Shown here one piece after another: positions 2,576-33,543 of a stretch of 36,597 nt of DNA. Each line of letters begins with the position of its first letter. Position 1 is the first letter of the stretch. The DNA is from a virus (Duplodnaviria > Caudoviricetes): the IMG/VR virus record IMGVR_UViG_3300046786_000692, positions 1-36,597 of that record. One strand, given 5' to 3'. Made by a program: the position numbers and the translations under genes. The notes under the pieces are model-generated. The model did not search any database, was not told where the DNA came from, and was given only the letters and a program-made list of their open reading frames with translations.

Positions 2576-3085
2576 TTACTGAACTGCACTGAACTTGGGC
2601 GCGAGGTATCCGAGATTGACATAGGTCACGGTAAGGTGTCCTGCATCAAGATCGTCTGTGGTTGCATTAAACAGTGTGGCTCCTGCCGCTACTGCTACTC
2701 TCACGTATCCAACGGGTGTCTTTCCGGTAGGAACCTCTGGAATCAAAGCTGTTCCTGCTCCTGTCGCAATTGTCCCCATAGTGAGTGTGGGAGTACCATC
2801 TGCAATCAAGCTCAAAAGATATACCGCTTCCTGCACTGATGCTGCGTTTGGAGCAATATCATGTGTCGTTGCGGTGAATGCTACCTCTGCTGTCGTTTTA
2901 GCCTTAAATACTCCATTGTGGAGATAGTTAATGGTCGAGGCAATCTTTATTTCTTTCTTGCTTGTAGAGCCTATCACGAGTCCACCTGTTGAAAGGGCGC
3001 GATAAAGCATACTGGTGTGTATCTGATCGAAACCATCCATGATGTTTTGATCGTATCCTGCGTACTTTGCGTCTTTAGCTAACAT
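2576..3085 (-). CDS. Putative capsid decoration/minor head protein
   Basis: 169 aa, A/T/G-rich, directly downstream of the major capsid gene; function inferred from position. Confidence 0.55.
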   Translation of the reverse strand: MLAKDAKYAGYDQNIMDGFDQIHTSMLYRALSTGGLVIGSTSKKEIKIASTINYLHNGVFKAKTTAEVAFTATTHDIAPNAASVQEAVYLLSLIADGTPTLTMGTIATGAGTALIPEVPTGKTPVGYVRVAVAAGATLFNATTDDLDAGHLTVTYVNLGYLAPKFSAVQ

Positions 3086-3109
3086 AGTTGTATGTGTAAA
3101 TTTTTAATT

Positions 3110-3140
3110 ATGGGGGATAACCTTATTAGCTACCCCCCAT
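3110..3140 (-). other. Stem-loop after the major capsid gene
   Basis: ATGGGGGGTAGC-TAATAAG-GTTATCCCCCAT pairs with G-U on the minus strand; no U-tract, so more likely an mRNA stabiliser or weak terminator. Confidence 0.6.
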
Positions 3141-3153
3141 GTGAAAAGAGTCA

Positions 3154-4125
3154 TTAAACAAGCGCGTGCTCGAGTCTCAAGAGATAAAGCTGTTGCAATA
3201 TCGCTGCTCCAAAGGTTGCTTTCCAACCTGAAGACCATCTTTGGTTGAGTGGGTCAGTTGTACCCGCACTTCCAAGAGGTTTAACGATGTTGTGCATTGC
3301 TTCACCTGAGATACGAGAGATACCGTAAGCATCGGCTCCGAGAATCAGCGTGGAGTACACGTCGATTGCTCCATTGCCACCTGCGGTAAATACTTTCGCT
3401 TGTGTGGTCTCAACGAATCGAATCTCATCAAACTTTCCTACTTCACCTGGCATCACGTCAGCCTTATTTGCATAAAGCTCAACTGGTGTCCAACCCACGA
3501 CGCTTTTCAGAGCATAGGTTGTGTTTGGGTGAATAATTCCAACGTAACAAGCGTTGACTGGCGTGGTCGCATATCCTGTATCTGGTGACACAAGACGTGT
3601 GATCTTCTTAACGTTGTTGCGCTTCATGGTACGAACAGCAATTCTCAGTTCGTCAATAGCGAGTATGTCTCCGGCTGAAACGTCTGTGCGTGCAGCATTA
3701 ATCTTTGGAGAGGAAACGTCTACATACTGTACGTTTGTACCTGCATTCATAACGGTTGCGAGCAGTGTGTCAAGAGACAACCCTGCCTGTTCTCCAAGCA
3801 CCTCTGCCGCTTCAACAAGCACAGCATCGGGTGAAGTGAAGTCAACCCAATCAGATCCCAATATGAAGTCACCATACTGTTGTACGGTTGTGGTAACGTC
3901 AGTCACGGAAAGAGTCTTTCCGGCTGGTGTCACACCTTCTGTAAGGGGGGTAACACTTGCAGCGAGAGCCCCAAACTTTCTGAACTTAATGATATTCGTA
4001 CTGTTCTTCGGAATATCTTTAATTTGGGCCCACTTGTCGTGGACTAGTAATGGCAACGCTCTTTCGAGAGTTGTTCGAGAGTATATATTACTCACTGGAT
4101 ATGGTACTTGTGCTACTCCGTTCAT
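3154..4125 (-). CDS. Major capsid protein, N4-gp56 family (HK97 fold)
   Basis: 323 aa; PLTEGVTPAG, QQYGDF, GEQAGLSLD, GEVGKFDEIRFVET, GSAGTTDPLNQR..GWK motifs. Confidence 0.92.
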   Translation of the reverse strand: MNGVAQVPYPVSNIYSRTTLERALPLLVHDKWAQIKDIPKNSTNIIKFRKFGALAASVTPLTEGVTPAGKTLSVTDVTTTVQQYGDFILGSDWVDFTSPDAVLVEAAEVLGEQAGLSLDTLLATVMNAGTNVQYVDVSSPKINAARTDVSAGDILAIDELRIAVRTMKRNNVKKITRLVSPDTGYATTPVNACYVGIIHPNTTYALKSVVGWTPVELYANKADVMPGEVGKFDEIRFVETTQAKVFTAGGNGAIDVYSTLILGADAYGISRISGEAMHNIVKPLGSAGTTDPLNQRWSSGWKATFGAAILQQLYLLRLEHALV

Positions 4126-4143: not shown

Positions 4144-4202
4144 AAAAAAAGCGCTCATTCCTTCAGATCAGACATTTAGTCTAATCTCAAGAAACAAGCG
4201 CT
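4144..4202 (-). terminator. Intrinsic terminator/attenuator in the capsid gene leader
   Basis: About 23-bp stem AGCGCTTGTTTCTT-G-AGATTAGAC / GTCTGATCT-G-AAGGAATGAGCGCT with G-U pairs, then a U-tract about 20 nt before the capsid ATG. Confidence 0.8.
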
Positions 4203-4215
4203 CGGTATTTCCGTT
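4200..4215 (-). promoter_or_regulatory. Leader motif AACGGAAATACCGAGC, copy 1
   Basis: Exact 16-nt match to 22494-22509; mini-hairpin CGG-AAATA-CCG overlapping the 5' arm of the terminator. Confidence 0.8.
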
Positions 4216-4260
4216 GTCGCAAGTTGTTCGGGCTACACTACGCCCGCATCACTGTTATAT

Positions 4261-4288
4261 ATAGTACACACTTTCTGAGCTCTGTCAA
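4261..4288 (-). promoter_or_regulatory. Sigma70-type promoter for the capsid operon
   Basis: TTGACA-16 nt-TACTAT. Confidence 0.7.
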
Positions 4289-4312
4289 TGGGATGCGCCC
4301 ATTTTGTAATGA

Positions 4313-4858
4313 TTACACCTTGAACTTCACCTTCCCTGACTTTATTCCCTGTATCATGGTAGAGAACTCGTCCTTACTCATGGTAGACACGTCCGGCACT
4401 GATCCTGACTCGTCACCACCACGCGCTGCATTACCTGTGGACGCGGCTGTTGAGCCTGCCTTTGCCTTCGCCTTTGCCTCATCTGACATCTTGGCGCCTA
4501 TGTTGAGCAGTGCTTTACCTGCAACTGCATGTGCTACTGCTTCAACTGACATGTTGCGGGCCCGTTTATCTAATGCAAACTCTTTGATCTTCGCTTCATA
4601 CGGTCTGAGTAATGCTCCTACCTCTGTTTGGAAAAAGGTCTCGAGCTCTGCTTTACGCTCAGTCAGTTGTATTTTCTCTTGAATGGGAGCTATTGCGCTG
4701 TTGATTGTTGTACGTACCTCATCATCCCCTGACCCCTCATCGTCTTTCCCTTTCTTGTCATCCCCTGCTCCTGCTTCTTCCGGATCGAGAGTGAATGGAT
4801 TTATAATTTCCTCTATCTTTGGCGCTTCGCCTTCTCCTGTTTTTGGTTTTTCTTCCAT
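4313..4858 (-). CDS. Capsid scaffolding protein (putative)
   Basis: Acidic disordered N-terminus, helical core, C-terminal VSTMSKDEF motif; between portal and capsid; start reassigned to MEEKPK at 4858. Confidence 0.7.
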   Translation of the reverse strand: MEEKPKTGEGEAPKIEEIINPFTLDPEEAGAGDDKKGKDDEGSGDDEVRTTINSAIAPIQEKIQLTERKAELETFFQTEVGALLRPYEAKIKEFALDKRARNMSVEAVAHAVAGKALLNIGAKMSDEAKAKAKAGSTAASTGNAARGGDESGSVPDVSTMSKDEFSTMIQGIKSGKVKFKV

Positions 4859-7600: not shown

Positions 7601-7813
7601 CTACACACCTTTTTTGATGTATGATTTTACGTCGTCAAGTTCTACATAGTCGTTCGGGTTGATTGCTTCTGACCCCTCAGTGATTATCCTTCGTGGCTCA
7701 CCATCCATTTTGTGTACCTTGAATATGCCATACTGATATTTGCGCATCTTGGCTATCATTGCAGCCTCATAAAATGACACGGTGATGGTGATTGTTTTTT
7801 TCTTTTGTTCCAT
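7601..7813 (-). CDS. Small DUF2292/YezD-like protein
   Basis: 70 aa; helix-YG-strand-DG-strand pattern EAAMIAKMRKYQYGIFKVHKMDGEPRRI; start overlaps the TerL stop; family call by eye. Confidence 0.5.
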   Translation of the reverse strand: MEQKKKTITITVSFYEAAMIAKMRKYQYGIFKVHKMDGEPRRIITEGSEAINPNDYVELDDVKSYIKKGV

Positions 7814-9838: not shown

Positions 9839-9895
9839 AGTGAATTATACATCTAACAATACCACATGATAATACACTGTGTCTCATGTTGCAAC

Positions 9896-9926
9896 AAAAA
9901 GCCCCCCACCAGACGGGGTAGGGGGT
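9896..9926 (-). terminator. Intrinsic terminator before the packaging operon
   Basis: ACCCCCTACC-CCGTCT-GGTGGGGGGC followed by TTTTT. Confidence 0.75.
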
Positions 9927-11494: not shown

Positions 11495-11520
11495 ATAAAA
11501 TATAAAATGAGTACATGAAC

Positions 11521-11549
11521 ATCATATAACAATATATTTATCCTGTCAA
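11521..11549 (-). promoter_or_regulatory. Sigma70-type promoter; 23 bp identical to 18262-18284
   Basis: TTGACA-GGATAAATATATTGTTA(17)-TATGAT. Confidence 0.8.
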
Positions 11550-11575
11550 GGGGAAGTGTGTATAATGAGTGATAA

Positions 11576-11791: not shown

Positions 11792-12085
11792 ATGGAACGA
11801 AGGAAGAGGTTGTTTAGCCATGAAGTAAAGAGAACGCGCCTTGAGATGCAGGAATTTATGTGTGGAAATTGTGGTCAAGACTTATGGAAGAAGCCATCAG
11901 GGTATACTCAAGGGCATCACATAGTTCCTCACTCTCTCGGAGGCACCCTAGAGCCTGAAAACTTAGTTATTTTGTGCCCTTCCTGCCATGTTGAAGCGGA
12001 TAACGCGGTGATGCTACACGGGACAATATATGGAGGGTATCATATTAGCGAGTCAGATTCTTCACAAAGGAGATCAAAACACTAA
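11792..12085 (+). CDS. HNH endonuclease
   Basis: CGNCG...GHHIVPHSLGG...ENLVILCPSCH: zinc-binding HNH signature. Confidence 0.88.
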   Translation: MERRKRLFSHEVKRTRLEMQEFMCGNCGQDLWKKPSGYTQGHHIVPHSLGGTLEPENLVILCPSCHVEADNAVMLHGTIYGGYHISESDSSQRRSKH

Positions 12086-12177
12086 GTCAAGATAGATAGT
12101 GCTGCCCTATCGACCTCTTGTTCCCAGAACAAGCGCTCTGCTGTTGAGCTATATCTTGTATATTTATGTACAGTATA

Positions 12178-14297: not shown

Positions 14298-14597
14298 ATC
14301 TGCACAGTGAGATGATGGGTAGGCCATTTAGTTCCCCATTTACACCTTGTTTACTGTGACGCCTCTCCAGTCACACACCTACACATCACCTCGCTCTACA
14401 GATCACATGTTAAGACTTAACGTGTACTTACCATGTATTTAACATGTTCTTCAGATCACATTGGGGTGTATGGGTTGGCGTGTAACGACGCCTACGTTTT
14501 AGTTGGGGAGGCATGAGTTGGACATGCGACCTCTCACCCCGTGGTGAGCGCTCTAACACTGAGCTACTCCCCGAATGAGATCCCCATACACCCCAAT
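14298..14597 (-). ncRNA. Structured non-coding region of three tandem hairpin domains
   Basis: Inverted repeats 14460-14474/14583-14597 (15 bp perfect), 14405-14413/14439-14447 (9 bp), 14298-14323/14378-14403 (26 bp imperfect). Confidence 0.6.
14503..14573 (-). tRNA. Degenerate tRNA (tRNA-Pro-like pseudo-tRNA)
   Basis: CGGGGAG TA GCTC AGTGTTA GAGC G CTCAC CACGGG GTGAG AGGTC GCATG TCCAACT CATGC CTCCCCA A: four stems pair, but 6-nt anticodon loop without U33, TCC T-loop, CTA instead of CCA. Confidence 0.65.
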
Positions 14598-18246: not shown

Positions 18247-18254
18247 ATGCGAAT

Positions 18255-18283
18255 ATGTTACAACAATATATTTATCCTGTCAA
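18255..18283 (-). promoter_or_regulatory. Sigma70-type promoter; 23 bp identical to 11528-11550
   Basis: TTGACA-GGATAAATATATTGTTG(17)-TAACAT. Confidence 0.8.
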
Positions 18284-18303
18284 GTGCAAATGCAAATATG
18301 AGG

Positions 18304-18699
18304 CTAAATTTCAACAAATATCATCTTGTGTTTCTGTTTCTTTTCAGATAAATACTTGTGGAGAAACATCTTTAATTTTATCTTGTACACCTCTGTCCGG
18401 ACACCTTTCACATCCTCGACAACATGTACCTTCCGCTCGTTATCAAAATACTCGAAGTCTGCAACGTAACAGATACACCGGTGCCTCTTTCCTGTGTAGT
18501 CTGTGAATGCGGGTAATATCTCAAACACCGGTTGCAGGTTGAGGTTCCGTATGACCTTCCCCGCTTGCAACATCTTGAGCTCAGTATATCTGTTTGCCTC
18601 TTTTTTGCTGTCAAAATTGATTCCATCTACCTTTGTGATGCTATTCCCGTATTTACTCCCCATCGTTGATCCTAGTGGCATTCCCCATGTGTTTTTCAT
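18304..18699 (-). CDS. DUF1064 family PD-(D/E)xK endonuclease
   Basis: SKYGN..T.VDGINFDSKKEA.RY, LQP.F, YVADF.Y, VEDVKG motifs. Confidence 0.88.
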   Translation of the reverse strand: MKNTWGMPLGSTMGSKYGNSITKVDGINFDSKKEANRYTELKMLQAGKVIRNLNLQPVFEILPAFTDYTGKRHRCICYVADFEYFDNERKVHVVEDVKGVRTEVYKIKLKMFLHKYLSEKKQKHKMIFVEI

Positions 18700-19847: not shown

Positions 19848-19877
19848 AACATATAAACGTAAATAACATATGCGAAC

Positions 19878-19907
19878 ATCGTATCACAATATAATATCTG
19901 TTGTCAA
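19878..19907 (-). promoter_or_regulatory. Sigma70-type promoter for the initiator gene
   Basis: TTGACA-18 nt-TACGAT; spacer contains ATATTGT like the two twin promoters. Confidence 0.65.
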
Positions 19908-21862: not shown

Positions 21863-22438
21863 TCATAATCCTAAAATCTTTCTAATGTTGTTTACCTTCG
21901 TGTCGTTCGAGTTCGTTGACTGCATCTCTTTCGTGACAGCGTTTACCTTCTGTGTGTCGTTCATAGGTGGTGTTACCCCTCCAAGTTGCCACGTGACAAG
22001 GTTTGGATCAAGGATGTTCAGGAAGCCCTGGAATCCATTATTTGTATTGAGTCTGTTTGCATACTGATCCGTTTCTACAAGGTTACAGTGGAGATGAGGG
22101 CCTTGAGAATTGCCGGAATTACCCGTGTATCCAACAAGTTTCCCTCGAGGGATAGATTGACCCGCGCTCACGTTGATACTCGAGAGGTGACAATACCACA
22201 CAGCGCATTTTTGGGAGGCATCCCAGATGACGATATAGTACCCGTAGACTGGATCCCACCCTGTTCTGAGGATCTTGCCAGTCTCGAATGGCACAACGAG
22301 TCGTACGCCTACAGGAGTAGCCCAATCTACCCCTTCGTGGCCCGCTAGACCATAGGGTTTGTAGTATGCGGGGTTAACTCCGTAGTATTGAGATACGGGA
22401 TACTGTCCTTCAAAGATGTCTGAGAGTGTGTATTTCAT
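21863..22438 (-). CDS. M23 family peptidase (endolysin)
   Basis: HEGVD (HxxxD), YCHL, GYTGNSGNSQGPHLH (HxH). Confidence 0.9.
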   Translation of the reverse strand: MKYTLSDIFEGQYPVSQYYGVNPAYYKPYGLAGHEGVDWATPVGVRLVVPFETGKILRTGWDPVYGYYIVIWDASQKCAVWYCHLSSINVSAGQSIPRGKLVGYTGNSGNSQGPHLHCNLVETDQYANRLNTNNGFQGFLNILDPNLVTWQLGGVTPPMNDTQKVNAVTKEMQSTNSNDTKVNNIRKILGL

Positions 22439-22450
22439 AGGATTATATAT

Positions 22451-22496
22451 AAAAAAAGCACCAGGAGTCAGATACTTGCGTACTGCCCTTAGTGCT
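22451..22496 (-). terminator. Intrinsic terminator/attenuator in the lysis leader
   Basis: AGCACTAAGGGCAG-TAC-GCAA-GTA-TCTGACTCCTGGTGCT with a GNRA loop, then a U-tract 12 nt before the endolysin ATG. Confidence 0.75.
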
Positions 22497-22509
22497 CGGT
22501 ATTTCCGTT
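22494..22509 (-). promoter_or_regulatory. Leader motif AACGGAAATACCGAGC, copy 2
   Basis: Exact match to 4200-4215, same overlap with the terminator 5' arm. Confidence 0.8.
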
Positions 22510-22561
22510 ACACTTCTATTTGTATCGGAGACACCTACTACTCGTCTCCCCAATTACAATC

Positions 22562-22590
22562 ATATTAGCGGTTGGGAAGGAAGTTGTCAA
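22562..22590 (-). promoter_or_regulatory. Sigma70-type promoter for the lysis operon
   Basis: TTGACA-17 nt-TAATAT. Confidence 0.7.
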
Positions 22591-22684
22591 GGGTAAACGG
22601 ATACACAATGGATAGCAATATAACAATCTTAAAGAAAACAAGCAGGAAACGCCTCGTAATTGATACTGCTCTGTTGAATATCAT
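22565..22684 (-). CDS. Possible small hydrophobic peptide (not in ORF track)
   Basis: MIFNRAVSITRRFLLVFFKIVILLSIVYPFTLDNFLPNR, 39 aa, ATGA-coupled to the giant gene; overlaps the lysis promoter. Confidence 0.35.
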   Translation of the reverse strand: MIFNRAVSITRRFLLVFFKIVILLSIVYPFTLDNFLPNR

Positions 22685-25600
22685 TTGAGCTTTCTAACTT
22701 CTTTTAATAGGGGAGCGCTAATGAGCTTCTCCTTTTTCAGTGTCGCAATGAGCTTATCAAACTTCGCCTTACTCCTTCCTTGCTTAATCTCTTTCAGATA
22801 TACCAGCTTCTCTTCGTTCGTTCCGGCAGTGAAGAAGCGATCCACAACCGTGTCGTATTCTCCCTGTACCACAGCAACTCTGAACTTCTTCGTGATACTT
22901 GTTGCTTTTGTCTTTTCTGCGGTTGTGGTTGGTCTGTGCCCGATGATCTCCTTCACCAGGTTCTTCTCAATGTCCTGCTTACGGAAGAGTGACTTCGTTC
23001 CGGATGTGTACGTGCGCACTGCCTGAGTGATGATCTTCTTATTCTCGATACTCTCCTGTGCTTTGCGCTGTTCGATACCAACCTCAAGCTCTCTCGTCTT
23101 CTCATACTCCCCGTAGTCTGAGGTCTTTATCCAGCGCCCAAGCACGTTTGAGATTATGGGGAGCTCGAGTACCTTCTGTTGCCATGACTTAGATGATGGC
23201 ATTTGCTCTGTTACATACGTCTTCATGAGCACTCCTCCTCCCAATTGTTCGAACATCCACGTTGCAAACGGTTTGAGCTTGTATGAGCCTCCGGCCTTGA
23301 ATGCGTCGTCCGGTATCACGTTCCTATTACGGAAGAAGTCGTAAGGATTCTGCCCGAATGCAAACTGAGCTATTGCTATTGCTGACCCTATGCTTGGAGA
23401 CAGGGAGGGGAATTGCCCCGCCCCTATGGAGAATATCTCCTGAGCATCTTTCAAGAAGTCTCTGTCTTTTTTGGTTATCCTCATTCCCTTCCAGGTTATT
23501 GCTCCGATAAGTCTTCCTGTCTCGTCCTGGGGAATACGTACATAGATTAGCTTGCCTGTCGAGTCCATTCCCACAGGCACGATTGTATAGTTCGTCTTGT
23601 CGTACTCTGACACTTTCTCGAACATGTCCTTGAGTATGGGCCCGAATAATCCCTGTAGTGCAGCAAACATAAGGAGCTTTGGCAGTACGCTTACCATTGC
23701 GGTCTTGAACCAGAAGCCCCCCCGTGTCTTCGGGTCTGTTGCAACCTGGAGGTCTGAGCGCATACCCTCCTTGATAGCATTGGAGAAGAGGAATACCTCA
23801 TTTGTCCATGCGTAGTTTGATCCACGTCGTAAGAAGTCAGGTGATCCTGCCTTCGTTCGAACGAATTGTCCAAGCTCATGCGAGGGCATTCTCCCGTTTA
23901 GCTCAAGGTATGCTGCGACCTTTGGTAGTCTCTCGATAAAGTTCCCCGTGCGCTCAATAAGATTGAGTACTGCGTTAATGGGCGCGAGTATCGTGAACTT
24001 TTTCTTTTGTGTCATCGTACCCCACCTAGACATTATTGCATCGATCTGTGTATCAATATCAGTCTGACCTGAAAATACATCATTAGCGGTTACTGACAGT
24101 ATCTTCTGCGCTTCCATCTCCTTGATAATATTGTTTGGTTGATCGATTGCATCCATGAATGCGGGCTTGAGTGCCTGCCCGTAGCGTATGAATGCACGGT
24201 ACAGGGGGAGGTTGGGCGTATTCTTCCAGAACCGTGTGAAGTCGCGCACTGCATTGAATGTCTGGAAGCCGGTGTTGAATGTAATGAAGAGCGGGCGGTA
24301 TAGCTTCGAGTTCATAAACCTGAGAGCGGCAAGAGCCATGTTGGTCTGCCCTGCGGTCTGTGTGCCCACGGTTGATGCGATGTATTGGTCTACATAGTAT
24401 CCACGTAGCTTCCCTTTCTCGTATAGGGTAATGAGTCCCTGCGCTTTGTCGTCCGGATCAACAGGGAGTCTTGCGGTACCTGTCCACATATATTTTGCAT
24501 CCATGATCTCAGCGCCAAATTCCTTTTTGTAGAACTGCACTACTGAGCGCTTTGTTTTGTTGCGCTCGATTGCTCGTATGAGACTGATTGTCTTTTGAAT
24601 AGTGGAGTCTGCGGGGTTTGCTATCTCTTTGAGTGTTCCTACCTGTTGCTTTACTCGCGCATCGATATGAGTGTCTAGGTAGTCAAGTACCTGGAATGTA
24701 GCATAGGCGGGGTTGGCTTTTAATTCCTTTACCAGTTCGGGAGAGTAGAACTCCGAAGACTCTGCATCCTCAAGTATTGCCTTGGTTACTTCTCTAAACT
24801 CTGCGATATACTTCTCGAGCTTTGCGTATGTTTCGGAACCCATCGTCTCTGCGAGTTTAGCCATCTGCTTCGTTGCGGTCTCCGGTGTCTGACCCAATGG
24901 GTTTGCAATCTCTCCCCGTTCATTGATGACCCGCTCAAGGAAGAGCGCCTTCCCAAAGTCTGTCCATGCAATACCCGCATCCTTTACCTTTGTATATATG
25001 GGTTGTATCTTATCCACGACGAATGATTTAATTACCCCGCCTACATAGTTGTATTCCTCGAGCATATACAGTGGATTATCATCATCTGATATTTGCTTCC
25101 CCTGTTTCTTGGCCCGTGCAATATCGTCAATAACCTTTTGATTGCGATCTACAAAGTCATACTTGAGCTTAAACCAGTAGTTGTCTTTATTGGCTCGTTC
25201 CTCGAGAGATTTTGCAATGATCTTATCGTCACCCTTCTTGAACATATCATTGATTGCCTTGTCTCGATCATTGAGTAGAGCCTCTTCTCCCTTCATAAGA
25301 AGTTGCCACGTTTCCTCAAGTTGCATCCGTACGTCCGGCTTTGCGTTTAGTCTGTCGAAGAATGCTGTCCAAAACTTGGGAGCTTCAGTCTGTAGCAGGG
25401 AGGGATCATTGAATAATACGGAGATAGCATCCGCGTATAGCTCTCTCGAGGAATAGCGGTAGGAGGTATACCCATCGTCTGCGCTCTCGTCGAATGGCGC
25501 CCACATCTGTGTCAACTCTTTGAGCTCTTTGCGTATATCGTAGTTCTTGATGACCCCGTGCTCGTCCTCGAACTCACCCTTCAAGAACTTGTGGAGAGAT

Positions 25601-28600
25601 GCAATCCTACCTATGATATTTCCTCTTGAGAGTGTTCCTGCTGAGAGATAGTCAATAAGGTGTCCCACCTCATGTGCAAGCACACGGGCTGCAACGGCGG
25701 GATTCTTGAATATCTCAGGGGAAAGACGTATTCTATTGGGGCCCGTGAAGTCTCCATATTTCCCTCTGAGACTGGTTACAATGGGTGTACTTCCGGATAT
25801 TTCCTTTGCAAGAGCTACAAGCTCGGGCATCTCAATCGCTGAGATAGACACCTTGTTGTAGTGTTCCTCGTCTGTGCTCAGTAGTACCTCAACAGTCTTA
25901 TTCCGTGGTGTCTCAGTTATTGCATACTCTGATTTGCTGGCAGTACCGCTTGGCGCCTTCATTACCCTCTTCCAACTACCACCCTTTACCAGGTCTCGAA
26001 CTACCGATCGTTGCATGCCTGAGTATTGTTTGCCATTAGAATCAGTCATCTTCAGGGTATTTCCTTCTATTGCGGTTATTGTTACCTTCCCCTCCATGTT
26101 GGTCTTGCCTTGCGGGTCGAGTACGTCTCCTACCTTAAATTCATCCTTTACTCCCGTAGTCTTTTTCTCGACCACCTTCTCTGTTGAGGATTGAAAGAAC
26201 GTCTCATTCTCTTTCTTGATCTCAGACACGAGAGCGCCAAAGTCATTAACCTTCTCTGTTTTACCTTGTTCGACCTTTACTTGTCTCGCGGTCTCTATCT
26301 TTGCATCAAACACTTTCTCGAGTCCGTCGATTTTCGTTTCCTGCGCCTCGATCTGCTTCTCCTTTGCGAGTATGTCTGAGCGCACCTGCTCAATGGTTGT
26401 CTCTTTCCTTACGAGAGACCTCTCTATGTCAGATAAGGTAGCGCTCTCCTTGACTACTTTCTTCTTGTAGAACTCATAGTCACTTTCATCTCCTGTCTTC
26501 TGTGCCTCAGCGAGCTTGAGCTCTGAATAGCGCAAATCTGATTGTGCTTCCTTGTACTTATTGTCCACTCTCTCCAGGAATGACGCGTCAGACTTCATCA
26601 CTTCGAGCCGTTGCTTTTCAACGGTATATGTCTGTGACCTTTCGGCTTCAACACGTCTCACCGGATCAGTGATAAGATCGAGCTTCATTTCCTCGAAGTC
26701 AAGGTCTCCCACCTCTACTGTATTTCCTTTGTAGCTCCAGAGGTTTTTGATTCTCTTCTCTTTGGTCTCGAGCTTTTGGAATATGAAAGCATCGACTGAG
26801 TTTTCAATGAGGGGATAATGGATACGTACATTCTTCCATTTGTTACCCTGTCTCCATATACGACCCTCAACCTGAAGCATGTCTGTAGGATTCCAAGGGA
26901 GATGCAAATAATACAGGTCTGTGGCATTCTCCTGTAGATTTACCCCTTCCTTGATAGCCTCCGTGCCTATGAGTACTTTGATCTTGCCGGCGTTGAATGC
27001 GTCCTGTGCGCTCTGTTTTGCATCAATGGACATACCACCCTGCACGATACCGATCTCTTCACTCTTGTACTTCAGCTCGCTTATGAGATATTGCCTCACG
27101 AATGGGAAGAATTGAACCCCACGAGGCATGTAGATAACCTGCCCCACACCACCATTGTCTTTCTTCACTTGCCTGATCATATCCATCGTAGCCTTGATCT
27201 TTGGTGATTCTTCAACGAACGATTTGTAGTCATTGTTTACCTGTATAAAACTGGCTGTCTGGTCTTCATCTGTAGGAGCTTCGGGAGCGGTATTGGTTGC
27301 ATAGCGCGAGAGATGGGGGGATAGTGCAATGTTCTGCATCTCAGTGATACCCTGTATTACGCCCCCGTCCTTGGTCTTCAGGAATAAGGTCTCTGCTTTC
27401 TTCATCATTGCTACCTGTGTTTGCGTGGGATAGAGTATAGGAGTCTTCTTTACCTTCGTTGGTCTATACACCCCCGCCTCGTCGCCTGTCCGGAAGTCAA
27501 TATACTCTGTGACAATCTTCTGAAGCTGTTGTACGTTGATAAACTTCTCGATAATCTCTTCCTCTTTCGTGCTCTGATCTGCCTTGATGACGAGCTTTGG
27601 TGTCAATTCCATGAACATTGACATAAACTCGTTCACATTCTTGAGTCCTATATTCTCGAGCTTCTTCTTCGCCATGAGAGAGAGTATTGAGTAAATCTCA
27701 AGAGGACTGTTGGTGAATGGTGTCGCTGAGAGTAGGTGCACGTTTCGTCCTTGTTGTTGCTCAAGGATGTACTGTGTCATGAGATACGCCTTGATACCCC
27801 GCGCGGATGATGATCCGTGAACGTTGCGGTATTCGTTGCCCTTCCCCTTCTCTACCTTGGCTCCTACAAAGATGTTCTTAAAATTGTGTACCTCGTCTAT
27901 TGTGAGATGGTCAAAGTTCAAGTCCTCGAAGGTAACTTCCTCTGAGGTCTTATTGATTGCCTTCCCTATATACTCGTCTGCCTTTGCCTTCTCTCGTTCA
28001 ATCTCACGCTCTGTCTTATCCCCAATGCCCGAGATGGTGTCCTGTAGTCCGGCAAGCAACCTGTCGTATGTTTCAGGCTTAAATCCGAGCTTCGTCAATC
28101 CGTCGTATGTCATTACAGATATTGTGCCATCTGCCACCTTGAACGTCTTCAGGTCTCCTTTGAACTTACCCCCAAGATTCTCAAGGTGATTGATCTGCAC
28201 GCCTGGAATAACCTCTGCTATCTCCTTCTCCCAATTGCGCAGTGTTGCATTTGGTACGATGACCAGTGGTCTCTTTGTAAACCCACGCTTCATTGATTCG
28301 TTCAGTGCGATAATGGCGGTGAGTGTCTTTCCTACACCTACGTCATATCCAAGAAGCCCCACACCCTTCGATGAGAGGAATGCCGCTCCTTCAAGCTGTA
28401 TAGCCTTTACGCTCAATGGCTTTCCCTTAAATGTGCTGTGTACTTTTCCGAATAGTGGTACTTTTGAATAGTCAGCACGCACCATACCGTTGAATGCCCT
28501 ATTGTATCTATCCTCAAGTACTGACTTCTGATCGTCGGTTAGCTCTGTATTCACAAACCTCTGGAATAGTTTGTTGCCTACTCTTCGTCTGCGCTGTCGT

Positions 28601-31600
28601 ATTTCAGTGTTTCGCACCTTGTCTCCATCGTTTACCCGAGACCCATCAATGTACCCTTGTACCTCATACGAGCTTGAGTCCTCATAGGCTGCCCTATCAA
28701 GTGTACGCATCCATCGCTCGAACAAGTCCTTTACTCCATAGGGCTCTCCGTCCATGTCAAACTTCACATTCTCAATGAATGCAGATGTTGGCTGTAGCTG
28801 TGTATCACTGACCGTCATCTTTGGAGGCAGTGTTGTCTCTAGGGCTTTCTTCTGCCTTGCGTACTGTTTCTCAGATAGTCTGTCTTTGTTCTCTTCCAGG
28901 TTATCGAGCTTCTCATAGATGTTCCCTTGTTGATACATGAAGTTCGTGAAGTATTGAGCCTGCCCATTCTCGAAGTATGCGTTCACATCTGCATTATCAA
29001 GTTTGCTTGGCTCTGTGATGCCTTGGGCCCGAACATACTCCTGTGATAGCTCTCCGGTGGCTGTGATGTTATTCCATAAATTCATATCAGCCTGGCTCAC
29101 GTTTGACAAGGTAAGAGGTGTGCTCTTCTTCAATGAAGTGCTCGTAACCTTCTTGTCTATCTTGCGTGGTGGCACTTTCTCTTGTACTACCCGAGGCTCT
29201 GCCTCAACGGCTGAAGTCTCATCTGTGAACGTGGTAGTGGGCGGGTTTGTACCATTCGATACAATGGGAGCTGTGGTCTCCTGCTCTGTGGGTATCTCAA
29301 TGTCTATCTGCTCAAGGCGCGAGAGCCTATCCAGAGCCTCATCAAGACTGCCCGTTACTACCTTCTCTTCACCAAACCTACCCTTCTTTGTGGTCTCTTC
29401 CCCGAGAACATTACCTGTATTCTTCGCAAAGTAGTTATCGTTCGACATTCTATTTGTCCTGTTGTATATGTCTGTCTCGTCGCTCGTAGTGTTCTTCCTG
29501 AATACGAGCAGATCAGTACCTATCTCTGTGGTGTCGAATATCCCATTAGGGAAGCGGTACGCGAGTACAAGGTCTCCGAGAGCCGAGATGCGCTCTTTTG
29601 ATTTGCTCAGTGTAGTTCTCAATATACCCGAAGGTACGAGCATAGCAACGATACCATCCTTCTTGGTAAGATCGAGACTGCGCTTGATAAAGTACTCTTC
29701 GTACTTCTTAATGCTTGCCTCTTCCCCCATTCCAAGGTAGCGCCCTCGATGTTCTCCATAGGGAGGATTACCTACCACAACTTCGTATTGTTCTTTTACT
29801 TCCCTCTGTGTGCCACGCTCTGTAGTGAATAGTGTCTCGAATTGTTTATTGAATACGTTCGTATCCGGATACAGGAGCTTGAGTATGCGCGCGGTAGTGT
29901 CGTTTATCTCGAGTGCGTCAATATCTGCTTTACCGTATGCACCCTCTACAAACCGTCCTATACCTGCCGCCGGCTCGAGCACTCGCATGTCTTCGTTCAG
30001 TGTAATGTATTTACCGAGCACCTTCCATATTGCGTCTGTGACTCGTTGTGGTGTGTAGTATTCATCGAGAAGCCCACGACCCTCAGCGCCCTTGCTCTCC
30101 ATGCCTCCTGCTGGCTGGTATGCACGTAAGATGGCAGCCTGTTCTGCGGTTATGTTCTTTTCAATATCTACTTGGCCCGTAACTTTATCGACTGAAGTAT
30201 ATGCGTCGATGATTGATTGTATCGAATCAGCTATCCGTGTTGCAGATCCACTTCCAGGGCTTGTGCTGCTGATGTCAGATCCCCCTGATGCCATTTCGTC
30301 GCCACTGACAGTAGTGTTTTTTGTAGTGTTTCCGGTTGATCCTTCGCCCATGCCTTGAGAATCGGGAACTCCTTCTGATCCAATGAGTTGATTAGTGTCT
30401 CCACTTCTTTGTTCATTTGTGGTTATTATAGTCTCTTTTACCGTTTCTTTCAATGTTTCTTTTGGTACCTTTGCCTTTTTCTTTTTGTCTTCCTCATCTA
30501 TTGCGCCCGCCCCCTCGAGATTACCCTCAACCATGAGCGTTGTGTCCTTGGATGATTGCAATATCTCATCGTATATCTTCTTGAGTGAGAACACTTCGTT
30601 GACCTCTTTCCCATTGAGCTTCGTTACCAGTATATTGTCCGTGGAATATTTCTTACCGTTAATGTATCCACCAATCTGTGCAGAAAAATCACCACCTGCT
30701 TCTCCCATCTGTCCATTCTTGAGACTCTGTATGCTTTCGCCTCTCTTAACATAAGACTCTATGAGTTGTATAGCAGCTTGTTTTGGTGTACTTACCGGAG
30801 CTCTTTCACCTGAAGCTTTAGGTTGTCCCGATGTAAGCTCAGGAGTCTTACTCACTGGATCGTCTGGGAAGAATCTCTGTTTGAGTAGTTCTCTGATCTT
30901 AGCATCTGTCCCCTTTGTTATTTTCAATTCCTCTTTCGGCTTTGTGAATAGTGCTGGCTCGAGAGTAGCATTGTCTCCCACAATGTTTGACGATGATGGT
31001 GTGGGAAGATAGTACCCGTGTACCCCCTCGTTGTCTACAGACTCTATGATGACCCCCCGTCTCCCGCCCGCGACGTCCTGATAGTATACCTCCCCGCGCT
31101 TGTATTCCCCTTTCCCTATTGTTGCCTTCAACATCATCTCCTTCTGACTCTCAAGAGAATCACCGCCCTTGTCTTGTACCTTTCCCTCTTCAAGTATTGT
31201 TTTAACGTTGTCCAGTACACCGGCTACCTGTGAGTGATTTGCTATGAACTCTTCACGGCTCACTTCTCTTGCTCCATTCTTCAGATTATCCTTTATTGCA
31301 TCGAGATGTATCTGACTTTCCTTACCATTTGCATCGGGAATGTTCTCTGTTTCGTTTCTGAGAACAGACAGCTCGCTCGGAGATACTTTTGTGTACACTT
31401 TCTCTCCATTTTTATCCACATAACTCAGTACTGACGTTGCTTCTGTTGTGTTTTCTTGTACATTTTTGGTGTCAGAACCTGGCACTTCTGAAGTATGTGT
31501 GACAGTTTCCGCATGTTTCGCATTCTCAGCCTTGATAGACTCCATCTGCGCCTGCATCTCTGGAGTAAGTACTGGTTTTTCTCTGTTATTTAGTCCCATA

Positions 31601-33543
31601 ACCTCCTTGTACATGTCCATTTGCTCGCTCTGTGGGTTGTCTGCGAAGTACTTATCGAGTGCCGGCTTGATCTTGTCCTTTATGTCCTGCTCTTTGGAAG
31701 CAGAATAGGTGTCGAGAAGGTATGAGATAGACCCTTGCTCTCCTGAAAGTGCCTTATCAGCAGCGCCATACGCATTGTCCCCTACCTCTTTCATGATCTC
31801 TTTGGGGTCAGTCTTAGCCTGAATCATCTCTACGGCTGTGCGCTGTTGGTCTGTAAGCAATGAATTAACCAGGCCCGAGAGCTCACCACGCTTCTCAAAC
31901 TCCTGTGTGATGATGTCAGGTATTACGCCTTTTGGCTTTGTGTCGGTCTGTGTATCTGCTTTGTTCTCATTTACCTTTATTTCAATTGGCTGTATATCTC
32001 CCCGCTCCTTCGCACTTAGGGCTTTGTTGAGCGTTGCTTGTGATATGTTCATTATGGAGCCCTGCATAGCCACACCTATTGCGGTCACCATGAACTGCTC
32101 TGCCGCCCGATCAGTAAATACCTGTGGTAGGGCTTTCTGTAGGTCTTTCCTGCCCACGACGTTAGTAGGGTCTGGAAGTTCTATCTTCGTTTGATCTATG
32201 ATAGCCTGTCCCCAATTTTGTACATACTCTTCGAACACCTCGGGGATGATGCCATTCCATCCAACCTTCTCTGCTATGTTGAATAGTACCTCTGGTTTTG
32301 TAATGTTTCTGAGTACTCCGAAACGTGAGAGTATTGCTTTTTGGATAAATGATCCGGAATCTTCCACGATGGCCCCTGAGTGTTCCGATGCAGTCTCAAC
32401 GATGGTAGACGCATACCCTTTTGCAAGTGCCTTTTTATAGCTGTCTCCCTCGTTTAGTTTCTTAATGAGTATGTCACCCTTCTCTCCGGCGACGAGATTG
32501 TATTTAGGAAGCATATATTCAGATGTCCTCTGTGCAATAGATGGAACACGTATAGACCCTTGGGCAAGCGATCCTACAATTCCACCCGCAAGGCTTCGTA
32601 CGATCTTAGGGGCTTGTGTGAGCGCTTTGACAGTGATGTCTTTACCCATGTCATATGCACCACCGGTAATGGCAAAGTCAAGAAGGTATGCTGTATTTGG
32701 CGCTATTGACTCTGCAACCACGTCTCCAAGTCCTTTATCAATGTATGCCTGGATGATGGTTGCGTCTCTACGTTTGGTGTATGCTTTCTCTTCGTCTGAT
32801 AATGGAGTGTTCGTATTGAGCTTTACCTCGATAGCCTTCATTCTCTTGTTCTCTTCTGAATCTACCCAACTCTTTACGTATGGAACAATGTTGGTGAATA
32901 CTTGCTCGGGGGTACTGAACATCTCCGCAAACCGTTTAATAAATCCTTTGTTTGTATTAGCCTGACCGGTGAGTTGACGATATACCTGCACTTCTTCCTC
33001 GAGCGCGGATAGCTCCCGTTGCTTTGACAAAAAAGACTCAGTTTCTCCTTTCGATTTTGCGAGCTCTGCATCAGTGAAGACGAGCTTTGGTTTTGGTGTC
33101 TTTGTCATGTTGTCCCGCCTCGTCTGTGCAAGCTCTTCTCTGAGAGTTAACATGCGCGTCTCCGAATCCTTGAGCTTCTGCATGCTGTTGAGTGTGAACT
33201 TATTTACCTGTTCATCGCTGAATCCGGCCTTCTTCAGGCCCTCAACTTTTGGGAGTTTCTGTTGTAGTGGTGTCTCCGGCTCACCGAATAAGAAGTCTTG
33301 TACCTTCGTGCTCACTTTGTCTACGGTACTCTTTGCCTTCTGGAGGAATGTTTGCTCTACTACTGGTTTTTTGTCTACCTGCACTTCCTTTGCTTTTGGC
33401 TTATTCTCTATGACCCCATACTTTTTCTTGCGTTTCTCGTCATCGTAGAAGTCATCAAAGAAGGTTGAGCCAGTAGAAGACCCACCACTCATAGATGGCT
33501 TACTCGAGCCCGCAGGCCCATAAAACTGATCAAAATATGGCAT
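22681..33543 (-). CDS. Giant DarB-like polyvalent protein: N6-adenine MTase + SF2/SNF2 helicase + HExxH metallopeptidase-like + LPD38-like C-terminus
   Basis: 3620 aa; EYYTP, VLEPAAGIG, VGNPPYG (MTase, about 30060-29500); DVGVGKT, IDEVH, LSATP, QVEGRIWRQGN (helicase, about 28400-26800); LAHEVGH near 25665; LPD38-like call is tentative. Confidence 0.88.
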   Translation of the reverse strand: MPYFDQFYGPAGSSKPSMSGGSSTGSTFFDDFYDDEKRKKKYGVIENKPKAKEVQVDKKPVVEQTFLQKAKSTVDKVSTKVQDFLFGEPETPLQQKLPKVEGLKKAGFSDEQVNKFTLNSMQKLKDSETRMLTLREELAQTRRDNMTKTPKPKLVFTDAELAKSKGETESFLSKQRELSALEEEVQVYRQLTGQANTNKGFIKRFAEMFSTPEQVFTNIVPYVKSWVDSEENKRMKAIEVKLNTNTPLSDEEKAYTKRRDATIIQAYIDKGLGDVVAESIAPNTAYLLDFAITGGAYDMGKDITVKALTQAPKIVRSLAGGIVGSLAQGSIRVPSIAQRTSEYMLPKYNLVAGEKGDILIKKLNEGDSYKKALAKGYASTIVETASEHSGAIVEDSGSFIQKAILSRFGVLRNITKPEVLFNIAEKVGWNGIIPEVFEEYVQNWGQAIIDQTKIELPDPTNVVGRKDLQKALPQVFTDRAAEQFMVTAIGVAMQGSIMNISQATLNKALSAKERGDIQPIEIKVNENKADTQTDTKPKGVIPDIITQEFEKRGELSGLVNSLLTDQQRTAVEMIQAKTDPKEIMKEVGDNAYGAADKALSGEQGSISYLLDTYSASKEQDIKDKIKPALDKYFADNPQSEQMDMYKEVMGLNNREKPVLTPEMQAQMESIKAENAKHAETVTHTSEVPGSDTKNVQENTTEATSVLSYVDKNGEKVYTKVSPSELSVLRNETENIPDANGKESQIHLDAIKDNLKNGAREVSREEFIANHSQVAGVLDNVKTILEEGKVQDKGGDSLESQKEMMLKATIGKGEYKRGEVYYQDVAGGRRGVIIESVDNEGVHGYYLPTPSSSNIVGDNATLEPALFTKPKEELKITKGTDAKIRELLKQRFFPDDPVSKTPELTSGQPKASGERAPVSTPKQAAIQLIESYVKRGESIQSLKNGQMGEAGGDFSAQIGGYINGKKYSTDNILVTKLNGKEVNEVFSLKKIYDEILQSSKDTTLMVEGNLEGAGAIDEEDKKKKAKVPKETLKETVKETIITTNEQRSGDTNQLIGSEGVPDSQGMGEGSTGNTTKNTTVSGDEMASGGSDISSTSPGSGSATRIADSIQSIIDAYTSVDKVTGQVDIEKNITAEQAAILRAYQPAGGMESKGAEGRGLLDEYYTPQRVTDAIWKVLGKYITLNEDMRVLEPAAGIGRFVEGAYGKADIDALEINDTTARILKLLYPDTNVFNKQFETLFTTERGTQREVKEQYEVVVGNPPYGEHRGRYLGMGEEASIKKYEEYFIKRSLDLTKKDGIVAMLVPSGILRTTLSKSKERISALGDLVLAYRFPNGIFDTTEIGTDLLVFRKNTTSDETDIYNRTNRMSNDNYFAKNTGNVLGEETTKKGRFGEEKVVTGSLDEALDRLSRLEQIDIEIPTEQETTAPIVSNGTNPPTTTFTDETSAVEAEPRVVQEKVPPRKIDKKVTSTSLKKSTPLTLSNVSQADMNLWNNITATGELSQEYVRAQGITEPSKLDNADVNAYFENGQAQYFTNFMYQQGNIYEKLDNLEENKDRLSEKQYARQKKALETTLPPKMTVSDTQLQPTSAFIENVKFDMDGEPYGVKDLFERWMRTLDRAAYEDSSSYEVQGYIDGSRVNDGDKVRNTEIRQRRRRVGNKLFQRFVNTELTDDQKSVLEDRYNRAFNGMVRADYSKVPLFGKVHSTFKGKPLSVKAIQLEGAAFLSSKGVGLLGYDVGVGKTLTAIIALNESMKRGFTKRPLVIVPNATLRNWEKEIAEVIPGVQINHLENLGGKFKGDLKTFKVADGTISVMTYDGLTKLGFKPETYDRLLAGLQDTISGIGDKTEREIEREKAKADEYIGKAINKTSEEVTFEDLNFDHLTIDEVHNFKNIFVGAKVEKGKGNEYRNVHGSSSARGIKAYLMTQYILEQQQGRNVHLLSATPFTNSPLEIYSILSLMAKKKLENIGLKNVNEFMSMFMELTPKLVIKADQSTKEEEIIEKFINVQQLQKIVTEYIDFRTGDEAGVYRPTKVKKTPILYPTQTQVAMMKKAETLFLKTKDGGVIQGITEMQNIALSPHLSRYATNTAPEAPTDEDQTASFIQVNNDYKSFVEESPKIKATMDMIRQVKKDNGGVGQVIYMPRGVQFFPFVRQYLISELKYKSEEIGIVQGGMSIDAKQSAQDAFNAGKIKVLIGTEAIKEGVNLQENATDLYYLHLPWNPTDMLQVEGRIWRQGNKWKNVRIHYPLIENSVDAFIFQKLETKEKRIKNLWSYKGNTVEVGDLDFEEMKLDLITDPVRRVEAERSQTYTVEKQRLEVMKSDASFLERVDNKYKEAQSDLRYSELKLAEAQKTGDESDYEFYKKKVVKESATLSDIERSLVRKETTIEQVRSDILAKEKQIEAQETKIDGLEKVFDAKIETARQVKVEQGKTEKVNDFGALVSEIKKENETFFQSSTEKVVEKKTTGVKDEFKVGDVLDPQGKTNMEGKVTITAIEGNTLKMTDSNGKQYSGMQRSVVRDLVKGGSWKRVMKAPSGTASKSEYAITETPRNKTVEVLLSTDEEHYNKVSISAIEMPELVALAKEISGSTPIVTSLRGKYGDFTGPNRIRLSPEIFKNPAVAARVLAHEVGHLIDYLSAGTLSRGNIIGRIASLHKFLKGEFEDEHGVIKNYDIRKELKELTQMWAPFDESADDGYTSYRYSSRELYADAISVLFNDPSLLQTEAPKFWTAFFDRLNAKPDVRMQLEETWQLLMKGEEALLNDRDKAINDMFKKGDDKIIAKSLEERANKDNYWFKLKYDFVDRNQKVIDDIARAKKQGKQISDDDNPLYMLEEYNYVGGVIKSFVVDKIQPIYTKVKDAGIAWTDFGKALFLERVINERGEIANPLGQTPETATKQMAKLAETMGSETYAKLEKYIAEFREVTKAILEDAESSEFYSPELVKELKANPAYATFQVLDYLDTHIDARVKQQVGTLKEIANPADSTIQKTISLIRAIERNKTKRSVVQFYKKEFGAEIMDAKYMWTGTARLPVDPDDKAQGLITLYEKGKLRGYYVDQYIASTVGTQTAGQTNMALAALRFMNSKLYRPLFITFNTGFQTFNAVRDFTRFWKNTPNLPLYRAFIRYGQALKPAFMDAIDQPNNIIKEMEAQKILSVTANDVFSGQTDIDTQIDAIMSRWGTMTQKKKFTILAPINAVLNLIERTGNFIERLPKVAAYLELNGRMPSHELGQFVRTKAGSPDFLRRGSNYAWTNEVFLFSNAIKEGMRSDLQVATDPKTRGGFWFKTAMVSVLPKLLMFAALQGLFGPILKDMFEKVSEYDKTNYTIVPVGMDSTGKLIYVRIPQDETGRLIGAITWKGMRITKKDRDFLKDAQEIFSIGAGQFPSLSPSIGSAIAIAQFAFGQNPYDFFRNRNVIPDDAFKAGGSYKLKPFATWMFEQLGGGVLMKTYVTEQMPSSKSWQQKVLELPIISNVLGRWIKTSDYGEYEKTRELEVGIEQRKAQESIENKKIITQAVRTYTSGTKSLFRKQDIEKNLVKEIIGHRPTTTAEKTKATSITKKFRVAVVQGEYDTVVDRFFTAGTNEEKLVYLKEIKQGRSKAKFDKLIATLKKEKLISAPLLKEVRKLK

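Follow-up and report, generated by a model that had tools for sequence, protein, structure and literature searches.

The window analysed here is an entire virus contig of 36,597 nt (IMGVR_UViG_3300046786_000692), in which Pfam and PHROGs searches identified a terminase, an SU10-type portal and adaptor, a major capsid protein, a DarB-like helicase/methylase of 3,620 aa and an M23 peptidase. The DarB-like protein (22681-33543), which contains methylase and SNF2 helicase domains, is probably a virion protein. Most of the window genes are preceded by a U-rich stretch, without a Shine-Dalgarno sequence, and the sole confident plus-strand gene encodes an HNH endonuclease (11792-12085). This gene adjoins one of two tRNA-like elements with non-standard T loops that were seen by eye at approximately 12085-12160 and 14500-14575 (minus strand); one of the two has a Pro-like anticodon arm, and ARAGORN called no tRNA at these elements. 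The nearest capsid relatives in GTDB belong to Parcubacteria, Patescibacteria and Kerfeldbacteria bins, and other close relatives were binned with other groups; the host is likely a member of the Patescibacteria.

The major capsid gene and the M23 peptidase gene are each preceded by a leader on the minus strand, with the following features.

4261..4288, minus strand: capsid-leader promoter, sigma70 type (TTGACA, 16 nt, TACTAT), assigned by consensus match only
4229..4246, minus strand: 5' hairpin of leader 1 with a GTAGT loop, folding at -9.2, specific to this phage and outside the conserved element
4198..4220, minus strand: predicted antiterminator hairpin 1, with covariation in alignment A2
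4144..4203, minus strand: predicted intrinsic terminator 1 (-35.1 kcal/mol, 7 U), with a 5' arm formed by the 3' strand of hairpin 1
3154..4125, minus strand: major capsid protein, putative first gated gene, followed by head-completion and tail genes
22562..22590, minus strand: lysis-leader promoter, sigma70 type (TTGACA, 17 nt, TAATAT), assigned by consensus match only
22527..22549, minus strand: 5' hairpin of leader 2 with a GTAGT loop, unchanged in a close relative and not conserved in distant ones
22491..22514, minus strand: predicted antiterminator hairpin 2, from folding and covariation
22451..22497, minus strand: predicted intrinsic terminator 2 (-18.6 kcal/mol, 7 U)
21863..22438, minus strand: M23 peptidase, probable endolysin and putative first gated gene, followed by ORFs for small membrane proteins

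Every component that the initial annotation had assigned to the two leaders (promoter, hairpin, linker, motif, terminator and U-tract) was found. An identical 16-nt motif occurs at 4200-4215 and 22494-22509; the upstream hairpins at 4229-4246 and 22527-22549 carry GTAGT in both loops and are separated from the motif by linkers of 13 and 17 nt, and both terminators begin within the 16-mer and end in 7 U. The downstream genes were likewise confirmed as the capsid gene (PHROG 1357, E 7e-69) and a lysis gene, the M23 peptidase (PF01551, E 8e-20), with start codons 19 and 13 nt past the U-tracts and approximately 70 and 50 nt from the hairpins. We infer that transcription of the capsid leader starts near 4254. 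Promoter-like sites were no commoner in the window than in shuffled sequences (35 vs 35.9 and 29 vs 32.8), and the region was found in four runs, which are probably DNA contigs and include no RNA data set. A second class of TTGACA promoters was observed at 11517-11558, 18251-18292 and 19867-19907; an exact 24-nt stretch is common to two of these and is present in part in the third, and it may be an early-gene operator. A 13-bp hairpin without a U-tract lies 3' of the capsid gene (3085-3154) and possibly stabilises the RNA.

The identity of the two 16-mers is real but weak when taken alone, because an exact 16-mer repeat was present in 43 of 200 shuffles of the genome. One more match in the window, with 3 mismatches, lies inside coding DNA (0.20 expected from shuffles), and a third candidate site at 18328-18357 (13.7 bits, E 0.19) was rejected because it lies in coding DNA without a terminator. 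A search of IMG/VR for the exact 16-mer returned 18 matches, none with a terminator, which were judged to be chance occurrences. The weight of the element therefore rests on its position and its conservation in relatives, and not on the identity of the two copies.

We fetched 253 loci of capsid relatives and parsed the gap between the scaffold and capsid genes in 208 of them. This gap is short in most loci, and a subset contains a promoter, a small hairpin, a terminator and a U-tract. Comparison with these related leaders in alignment A2, which comprises 39 sites (the 2 window sites and 37 from relatives), showed that the hairpin is conserved and covaries. What the relatives share is a structure that extends beyond the 16-mer and differs in sequence between sites. 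In this structure, of which the 16-mer forms the top, an AA/A internal loop separates the lower stem from a 3-bp upper stem that carries an A-rich loop. Hairpin 1 has a lower stem at 4220-4216/4201-4198 with one bulged A, the AA/A internal loop and an upper stem at 4213-4211/4205-4203 closed by the loop AAAUA; hairpin 2 has a 5-bp lower stem at 22514-22510/22495-22491, the same internal loop and an upper stem at 22507-22505/22499-22497, again with the loop AAAUA.

Pairing of the upper stem is 100% in A2 by construction, since the scan used to pick sites demanded it; the outer pair nevertheless occurs as five pair types across the 39 sites (CG 23, AU 8, GC 5, UA 2 and GU 1) and the middle pair as three. 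The lower stem, which was not selected by the scan, is paired in 32, 30, 19 and 11 of the 39 sites going outward, and its second pair shows 16 two-sided changes, with no slid register near as good. As a bias-free check, a sequence-only anchor recovered all three upper pairs in 29 of 38 loci with a terminator call, drawn from 108 distinct loci with a capsid identity of at least 45.5%. Six of the nine failures were mis-anchored, the hairpin being present in other scans, and the anchor showed no hairpin in L180, L152 and L082. Across the phage sites, the A residues of the loop and internal loop are kept and the stems vary. A boxA-like, single-stranded reading was dropped because the stem covaries. 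An Rfam 15 scan of the window gave 0 matches at the gathering score, and five binned host genomes searched with a loose pattern gave counts similar to those of its controls.

The upstream hairpin with the GTAGT loop does not belong to the conserved element; it is absent from 36/36 relative sites. A -10 hexamer was found in 22 of 36 relative sites, at a median of 21 nt from the hairpin. In a close relative, 22473-22555 is unchanged, and the promoter spacer and the downstream gene differ. A close relative also carries approximately 275 extra bases at window position 4308-4321, after the scaffold stop and before the capsid promoter, with a 14-nt duplication on the flanks (three contigs). Within the capsid clade, sites are placed ahead of the capsid gene, and some genomes have further ones ahead of the adaptor, an internal virion protein or other structural genes; one genome (G003) has three sites and another (G051) has two, and the sites in these phages sit only before virion or lysis genes. 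The twin arrangement of capsid and lysis leaders is present in the window, but the lysis leader is not a trait of the family, as it was found in 0/5 M23 relatives; lysis gating would thus be a feature of this phage.

The initial annotation proposed that a protein-bound RNA element gates the late genes. The 3' strand of the lower stem of each hairpin doubles as the 5' arm of the terminator. In both leaders, folding predicted the hairpin to be the most stable structure of the nascent prefix and to lack lower-stem pairing once the leader is complete; the energy required to hold the hairpin was 10.1 and 5.2 kcal/mol in the two window leaders. The predicted folds and the covariation describe an arrangement characteristic of BglG/RAT leaders, a stem-loop that partly overlaps an intrinsic terminator and is mutually exclusive with it. 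Relatives of one class have an overlap of 4-5 nt between the upper stem itself and the terminator; in many sites, the upper stem alone merely abuts it (offset 0 or 1). With the hairpin forced, leader 1 still formed most of its terminator stem, which counts against a gate.

When the ORFs of the window were compared across records, only the ORF at 7601-7813 split cleanly by presence of the motif. This ORF and the region from which it may be transcribed are as follows.

7601..7813, minus strand: 70-aa DUF2292/YezD-like microprotein, candidate RNA-binding antiterminator, whose start overlaps the terL stop
9844..9925, minus strand: terminator (9925-9902) and promoter-like sites (9894 and 9872) upstream of terS

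Matches to the 70-aa ORF were detected by phmmer in 9/13 motif-bearing records vs 0/14 others, and a profile search recovered it in three of the four missing motif-bearing records. Among 66 loci spanning terL to portal, 15 had both the gene and a leader terminator, 49 had neither, 1 had the gene only and 1 had the terminator call only; the gene-only phage (L020) carries a variant hairpin that overlaps a terminator just 3' of the gene, before the portal. In 27 fetched records (four of them partial), which were picked with knowledge of their capsid-leader status, a site was present in 13/14 with the gene and 1/13 without it, and the site missed in the gene-bearing G007 is a variant with a 4-nt loop that was present in other scans. 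The distribution of the motif on a quick capsid tree (110 rows) needs only 2 changes, so the co-occurrence in phages rests on few independent events, in 2-3 capsid clades. For the 70-aa protein, PHROGs and NCBIfam gave nothing consistent and the ESM Atlas no usable match. We infer that the microprotein transcript starts in the 9844..9925 region upstream of terS.

An AlphaFold2 model of the monomer (mean pLDDT 76) contains a helix at residues 14-25 and a beta-hairpin at residues 30-46. The predicted fold of the 70-aa protein is beta-alpha-beta-beta, and the extra N-terminal strand forms the predicted dimer, with an interface of residues 7-12 and 29-35 of both copies. The homodimer model scored 0.49, compared with 0.00 for the best control, a mark that was reached by 20/30 solved pairs and 1/23 single chains; at least 97% of contacts agreed between runs, with a pLDDT of at least 77. 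The modelling supports a homodimer. The monomer model had no Foldseek match at E 0.001, the best VIA Z score was 2.3 (rmsd 4.9, 43 aligned), and a sequence search of the PDB found no match for the protein.

The window family, defined as 470 representatives at E up to 0.001, matched DUF2292 (PF10055) in HHalign at 96.1% (E 3e-9, 34 columns), through a core composed of a helix and a [YF]G beta-hairpin. The window protein itself did not hit DUF2292 at E up to 1 and falls below the Pfam cut-off of 22 bits; 8/18 family members gave weak hits and 2/74 representatives passed the cut-off. One Patescibacteria protein (in G538) bridges the two families, matching both profile A4 and PF10055. In 201 Patescibacteria genomes, we found 2 matches to A4 and 3 to PF10055, one of which is common to both, and by eye 3/4 Patescibacteria family loci have a hairpin and a terminator 3' of the gene.

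DUF2292 was found in 27/151 Bacillota and 9/151 Pseudomonadota genomes sampled, and also in Bacillus subtilis. A descriptor of the hairpin, applied within 250 nt downstream of chromosomal DUF2292 genes at 44 loci in three phyla, matched at 21/44 (1.4 expected), compared with 1/44 upstream, 0/44 far downstream and 2/44 on the reverse strand. The remaining 23/44 loci have no descriptor match downstream, which counts against a gate. Nineteen of these hairpins covary and have the same lower stem and internal loop; the upper stem of the chromosomal hairpins is mostly 4 bp and the loop frequently 4 nt. A covariance model built from the phage sites scored only 1 chromosomal hairpin at E <0.01 in 32 loci, so the phage and chromosomal sets are related types rather than a single tight family. 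The Bacillota hairpins are followed by a terminator, and the genes beyond look, from our reading of the sequences, like cysH, sat, cysD or sbp. In Pseudomonadota, the hairpin is present with no U-tract terminator nearby, so some DUF2292 members must act otherwise. A search of 20 chromosomal loci against Rfam at E up to 1 returned only upstream SAM or cobalamin riboswitches and one weak hit elsewhere. At two loci (L363:1290-1700 and L387:1170-1700), a SAM or cobalamin riboswitch is followed by the DUF2292 gene, the hairpin-terminator and a metabolic operon. Four Bacillota loci (L379, L380, L381 and L382) encode tandem two-domain DUF2292 proteins, consistent with a dimer as the working unit.

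A scan of IMG/VR for the combined hairpin and terminator pattern yielded 39 loci, one of which was a chance match in coding DNA. Nineteen belong to the capsid clade: 9 of them contain the gene, for 3 more it was found in the record, and 7 stop short of where it would be expected. Eight loci represent 6 unrelated phage groups, and in 5/6 of these groups an upstream ORF of 42-70 aa encodes a helix and a [YF]xG beta-hairpin (alpha-beta-beta). The profile of these microproteins matched chromosomal DUF2292 at 94.8%; they were not detected by PF10055 and A4 searches, and the window family had no direct profile match to them (1.4%). The remaining 11 loci form one group with a similar hairpin and a gap before the terminator, for which no partner was found even in a complete genome, and this also counts against a gate.

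The proposal that a protein-bound RNA element gates late genes is in keeping with a hairpin that covaries and is predicted to compete with the terminator, with its position before late genes and with the co-occurrence of a candidate partner, but the unit is wider than the 16-mer first proposed. We consider it likely that the leaders are BglG/RAT-like antitermination gates, opened by the phage microprotein, that delay the capsid and lysis genes. Under this proposal, the microprotein would be made together with the terminase from the terS promoter, on a terS-terL transcript in which its start codon overlaps the terL stop, and would accumulate until it opens both gates. The hairpin is predicted to form first on the nascent RNA and, with no stabiliser, to lose to the terminator. 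A dimer would bind the hairpin as it leaves RNA polymerase and hold the lower stem, which would keep the terminator from closing onto its U-tract and allow transcription into the capsid, tail and lysis genes. The result would be a lag between the packaging genes and the capsid and lysis genes that requires neither a phage sigma factor nor a Q protein.

Other readings account for parts of these data. The hairpin could be a loading site like lambda boxB, from which the same protein would make RNA polymerase processive and terminator-resistant; the many sites in which the upper stem only abuts the terminator (offset 0 or 1), and the survival of most of terminator 1 when the hairpin is forced, suit this reading. 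However, the hairpin always lies at the base of a terminator, with an overlap of 4-5 nt throughout one class, it is repeated at each gate (three sites in G003 and two in G051), as expected for local action, and the partner has no Arg-rich motif; we regard loading as unlikely. It is more improbable again that a host factor or no factor is involved, with the hairpin merely tuning terminator strength and the small gene co-inherited. The few independent events on the capsid tree and the phage group with a similar hairpin and no partner would fit such co-inheritance, but gene and hairpin are found together again in unrelated phages and in three bacterial phyla, and the A residues of the loop and internal loop are kept where the stems vary. 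The family is also rare in the likely host phylum (2/201 genomes for A4 and 3/201 for PF10055), which makes it unlikely that the host would supply a copy.

A protein that binds the hairpin might instead act negatively or post-transcriptionally, through repression, RNA stability or translation, as the Pseudomonadota hairpins with no U-tract terminator nearby would allow. In these phages, however, the predicted folds indicate that holding the hairpin could only weaken the terminator, and there are 19 and 13 nt between the U-tracts and the start codons, which are approximately 70 and 50 nt from the hairpins; we give this reading a slim chance, marginally below that of a host factor. The position of the element ahead of a terminator is aptamer-like, and its chromosomal copies precede sulfur-assimilation genes according to our reading of the downstream ORFs, both of which would suit a small-molecule riboswitch. 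Such a riboswitch is very improbable, since the conserved part measures approximately 25 nt and its stem varies freely, the regulated genes range from capsids and lysis to sulfur metabolism and surface proteins, and the element tracks a protein gene and has no Rfam match.

Within the DUF2292 family, OscA is described in PMC3596284 and PMC2996968 as a small protein of unknown function that is co-transcribed with the sulfate-binding-protein gene sbp, and inactivation of oscA causes chromate sensitivity (PMC2996968, PMC3596284). In the parts of PMC7921472 and PMC10433965 available to us, DUF2292 or oscA appear only as expression changes. The phage family resembles DUF2292/YezD/OscA in its profile match over 34 columns and in the same type of hairpin found 3' of chromosomal members; unlike these, the window protein is encoded kilobases from its putative target sites and has an extra N-terminal strand. 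We lean towards the view that DUF2292/YezD/OscA proteins are unrecognised, sensor-less RNA-binding antiterminators with a cognate hairpin, which would provide a third route to phage late genes beside the Q-type and sigma/activator routes and would gate operons for sulfur assimilation or surface proteins in several phyla, with phage-host cross-talk possible. If so, a new pair would join the short list of bacterial antiterminators, a widespread family of unknown function would gain a molecular function, the importance of oscA in the sulfur-starvation response would be explained, and phages would be able to time capsid and lysis genes using the host polymerase alone. The parts are tiny (70 aa and approximately 25 nt), and their natural stem and loop variants lend themselves to specificity tests and possibly to orthogonal switches.

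In the literature searched, we found no link between DUF2292/YezD/OscA and RNA binding and no description of this hairpin; the hairpin may be present, unnamed, among the 107 protein-binding candidates of PMC11109978 or the more than ten thousand phage RNA candidates of PMC10690425. The available part of PMC11109978 does not name the family, the motif strings are absent from six supplement files of PMC10690425, and yezD is absent from three supplement files of PMC12456014. The probable protein-RNA gate is conserved, belongs to a known type of mechanism, has a candidate partner and is apparently unpublished.

Lambda N acts on early genes and at a distance, with an Arg-rich motif, boxA and Nus factors, and its boxB has a GNRRA pentaloop. 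The proposed system resembles it in pairing a phage protein, here a candidate, with a small hairpin that has a purine-rich loop, for antitermination. Unlike in lambda N, the loop begins with A, the hairpin overlaps each terminator, the genes are late, and the partner consensus contains no Arg-rich stretch. With lambda Q and AlpA of P. aeruginosa, the proposed gates have in common a strong promoter, a short leader and a terminator before lysis and virion genes that a single phage protein opens. Those proteins load from a DNA site in the promoter, whereas the spacers of the two window promoters share no sequence and the element covaries as RNA; in addition, the leader-2 spacer of the close relative varies and the hairpin is constant.

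The ANTAR proteins EutV, NasR and AmiR bind a dual hexaloop RNA with A1 and G4 through a three-helix domain (PMC8934654). The phage element is like the ANTAR RNA in being a tiny hairpin embedded in the 5' arm of a terminator, but it has one conserved hairpin instead of two and an A-rich loop of 4-5 nt without G4. The loop is 5 nt in length, with A or U at position 4 in 37/38, no ANTAR domain was matched by Pfam in the 47 window ORFs or 18 family members, and the modelled partner has one main helix and a beta-hairpin.

In the BglG/SacY/LicT systems, a protein dimer binds a short leader stem-loop that partly overlaps an intrinsic terminator and causes read-through (PMC12591593); the available part of this article does not mention YezD or phage. 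The phage hairpin likewise partly overlaps the leader terminator, with binding and read-through being our proposal. It differs in that no CAT or PRD domain was matched by Pfam among 47 window ORFs (E up to 0.01) or 18 partner-family members, the partner is a 70-aa protein without a sensor domain, the RNA is shorter and its loop A-rich, and the targets are phage late genes. The proposed phage gate would work like BglG/RAT, but is not a member of that family.
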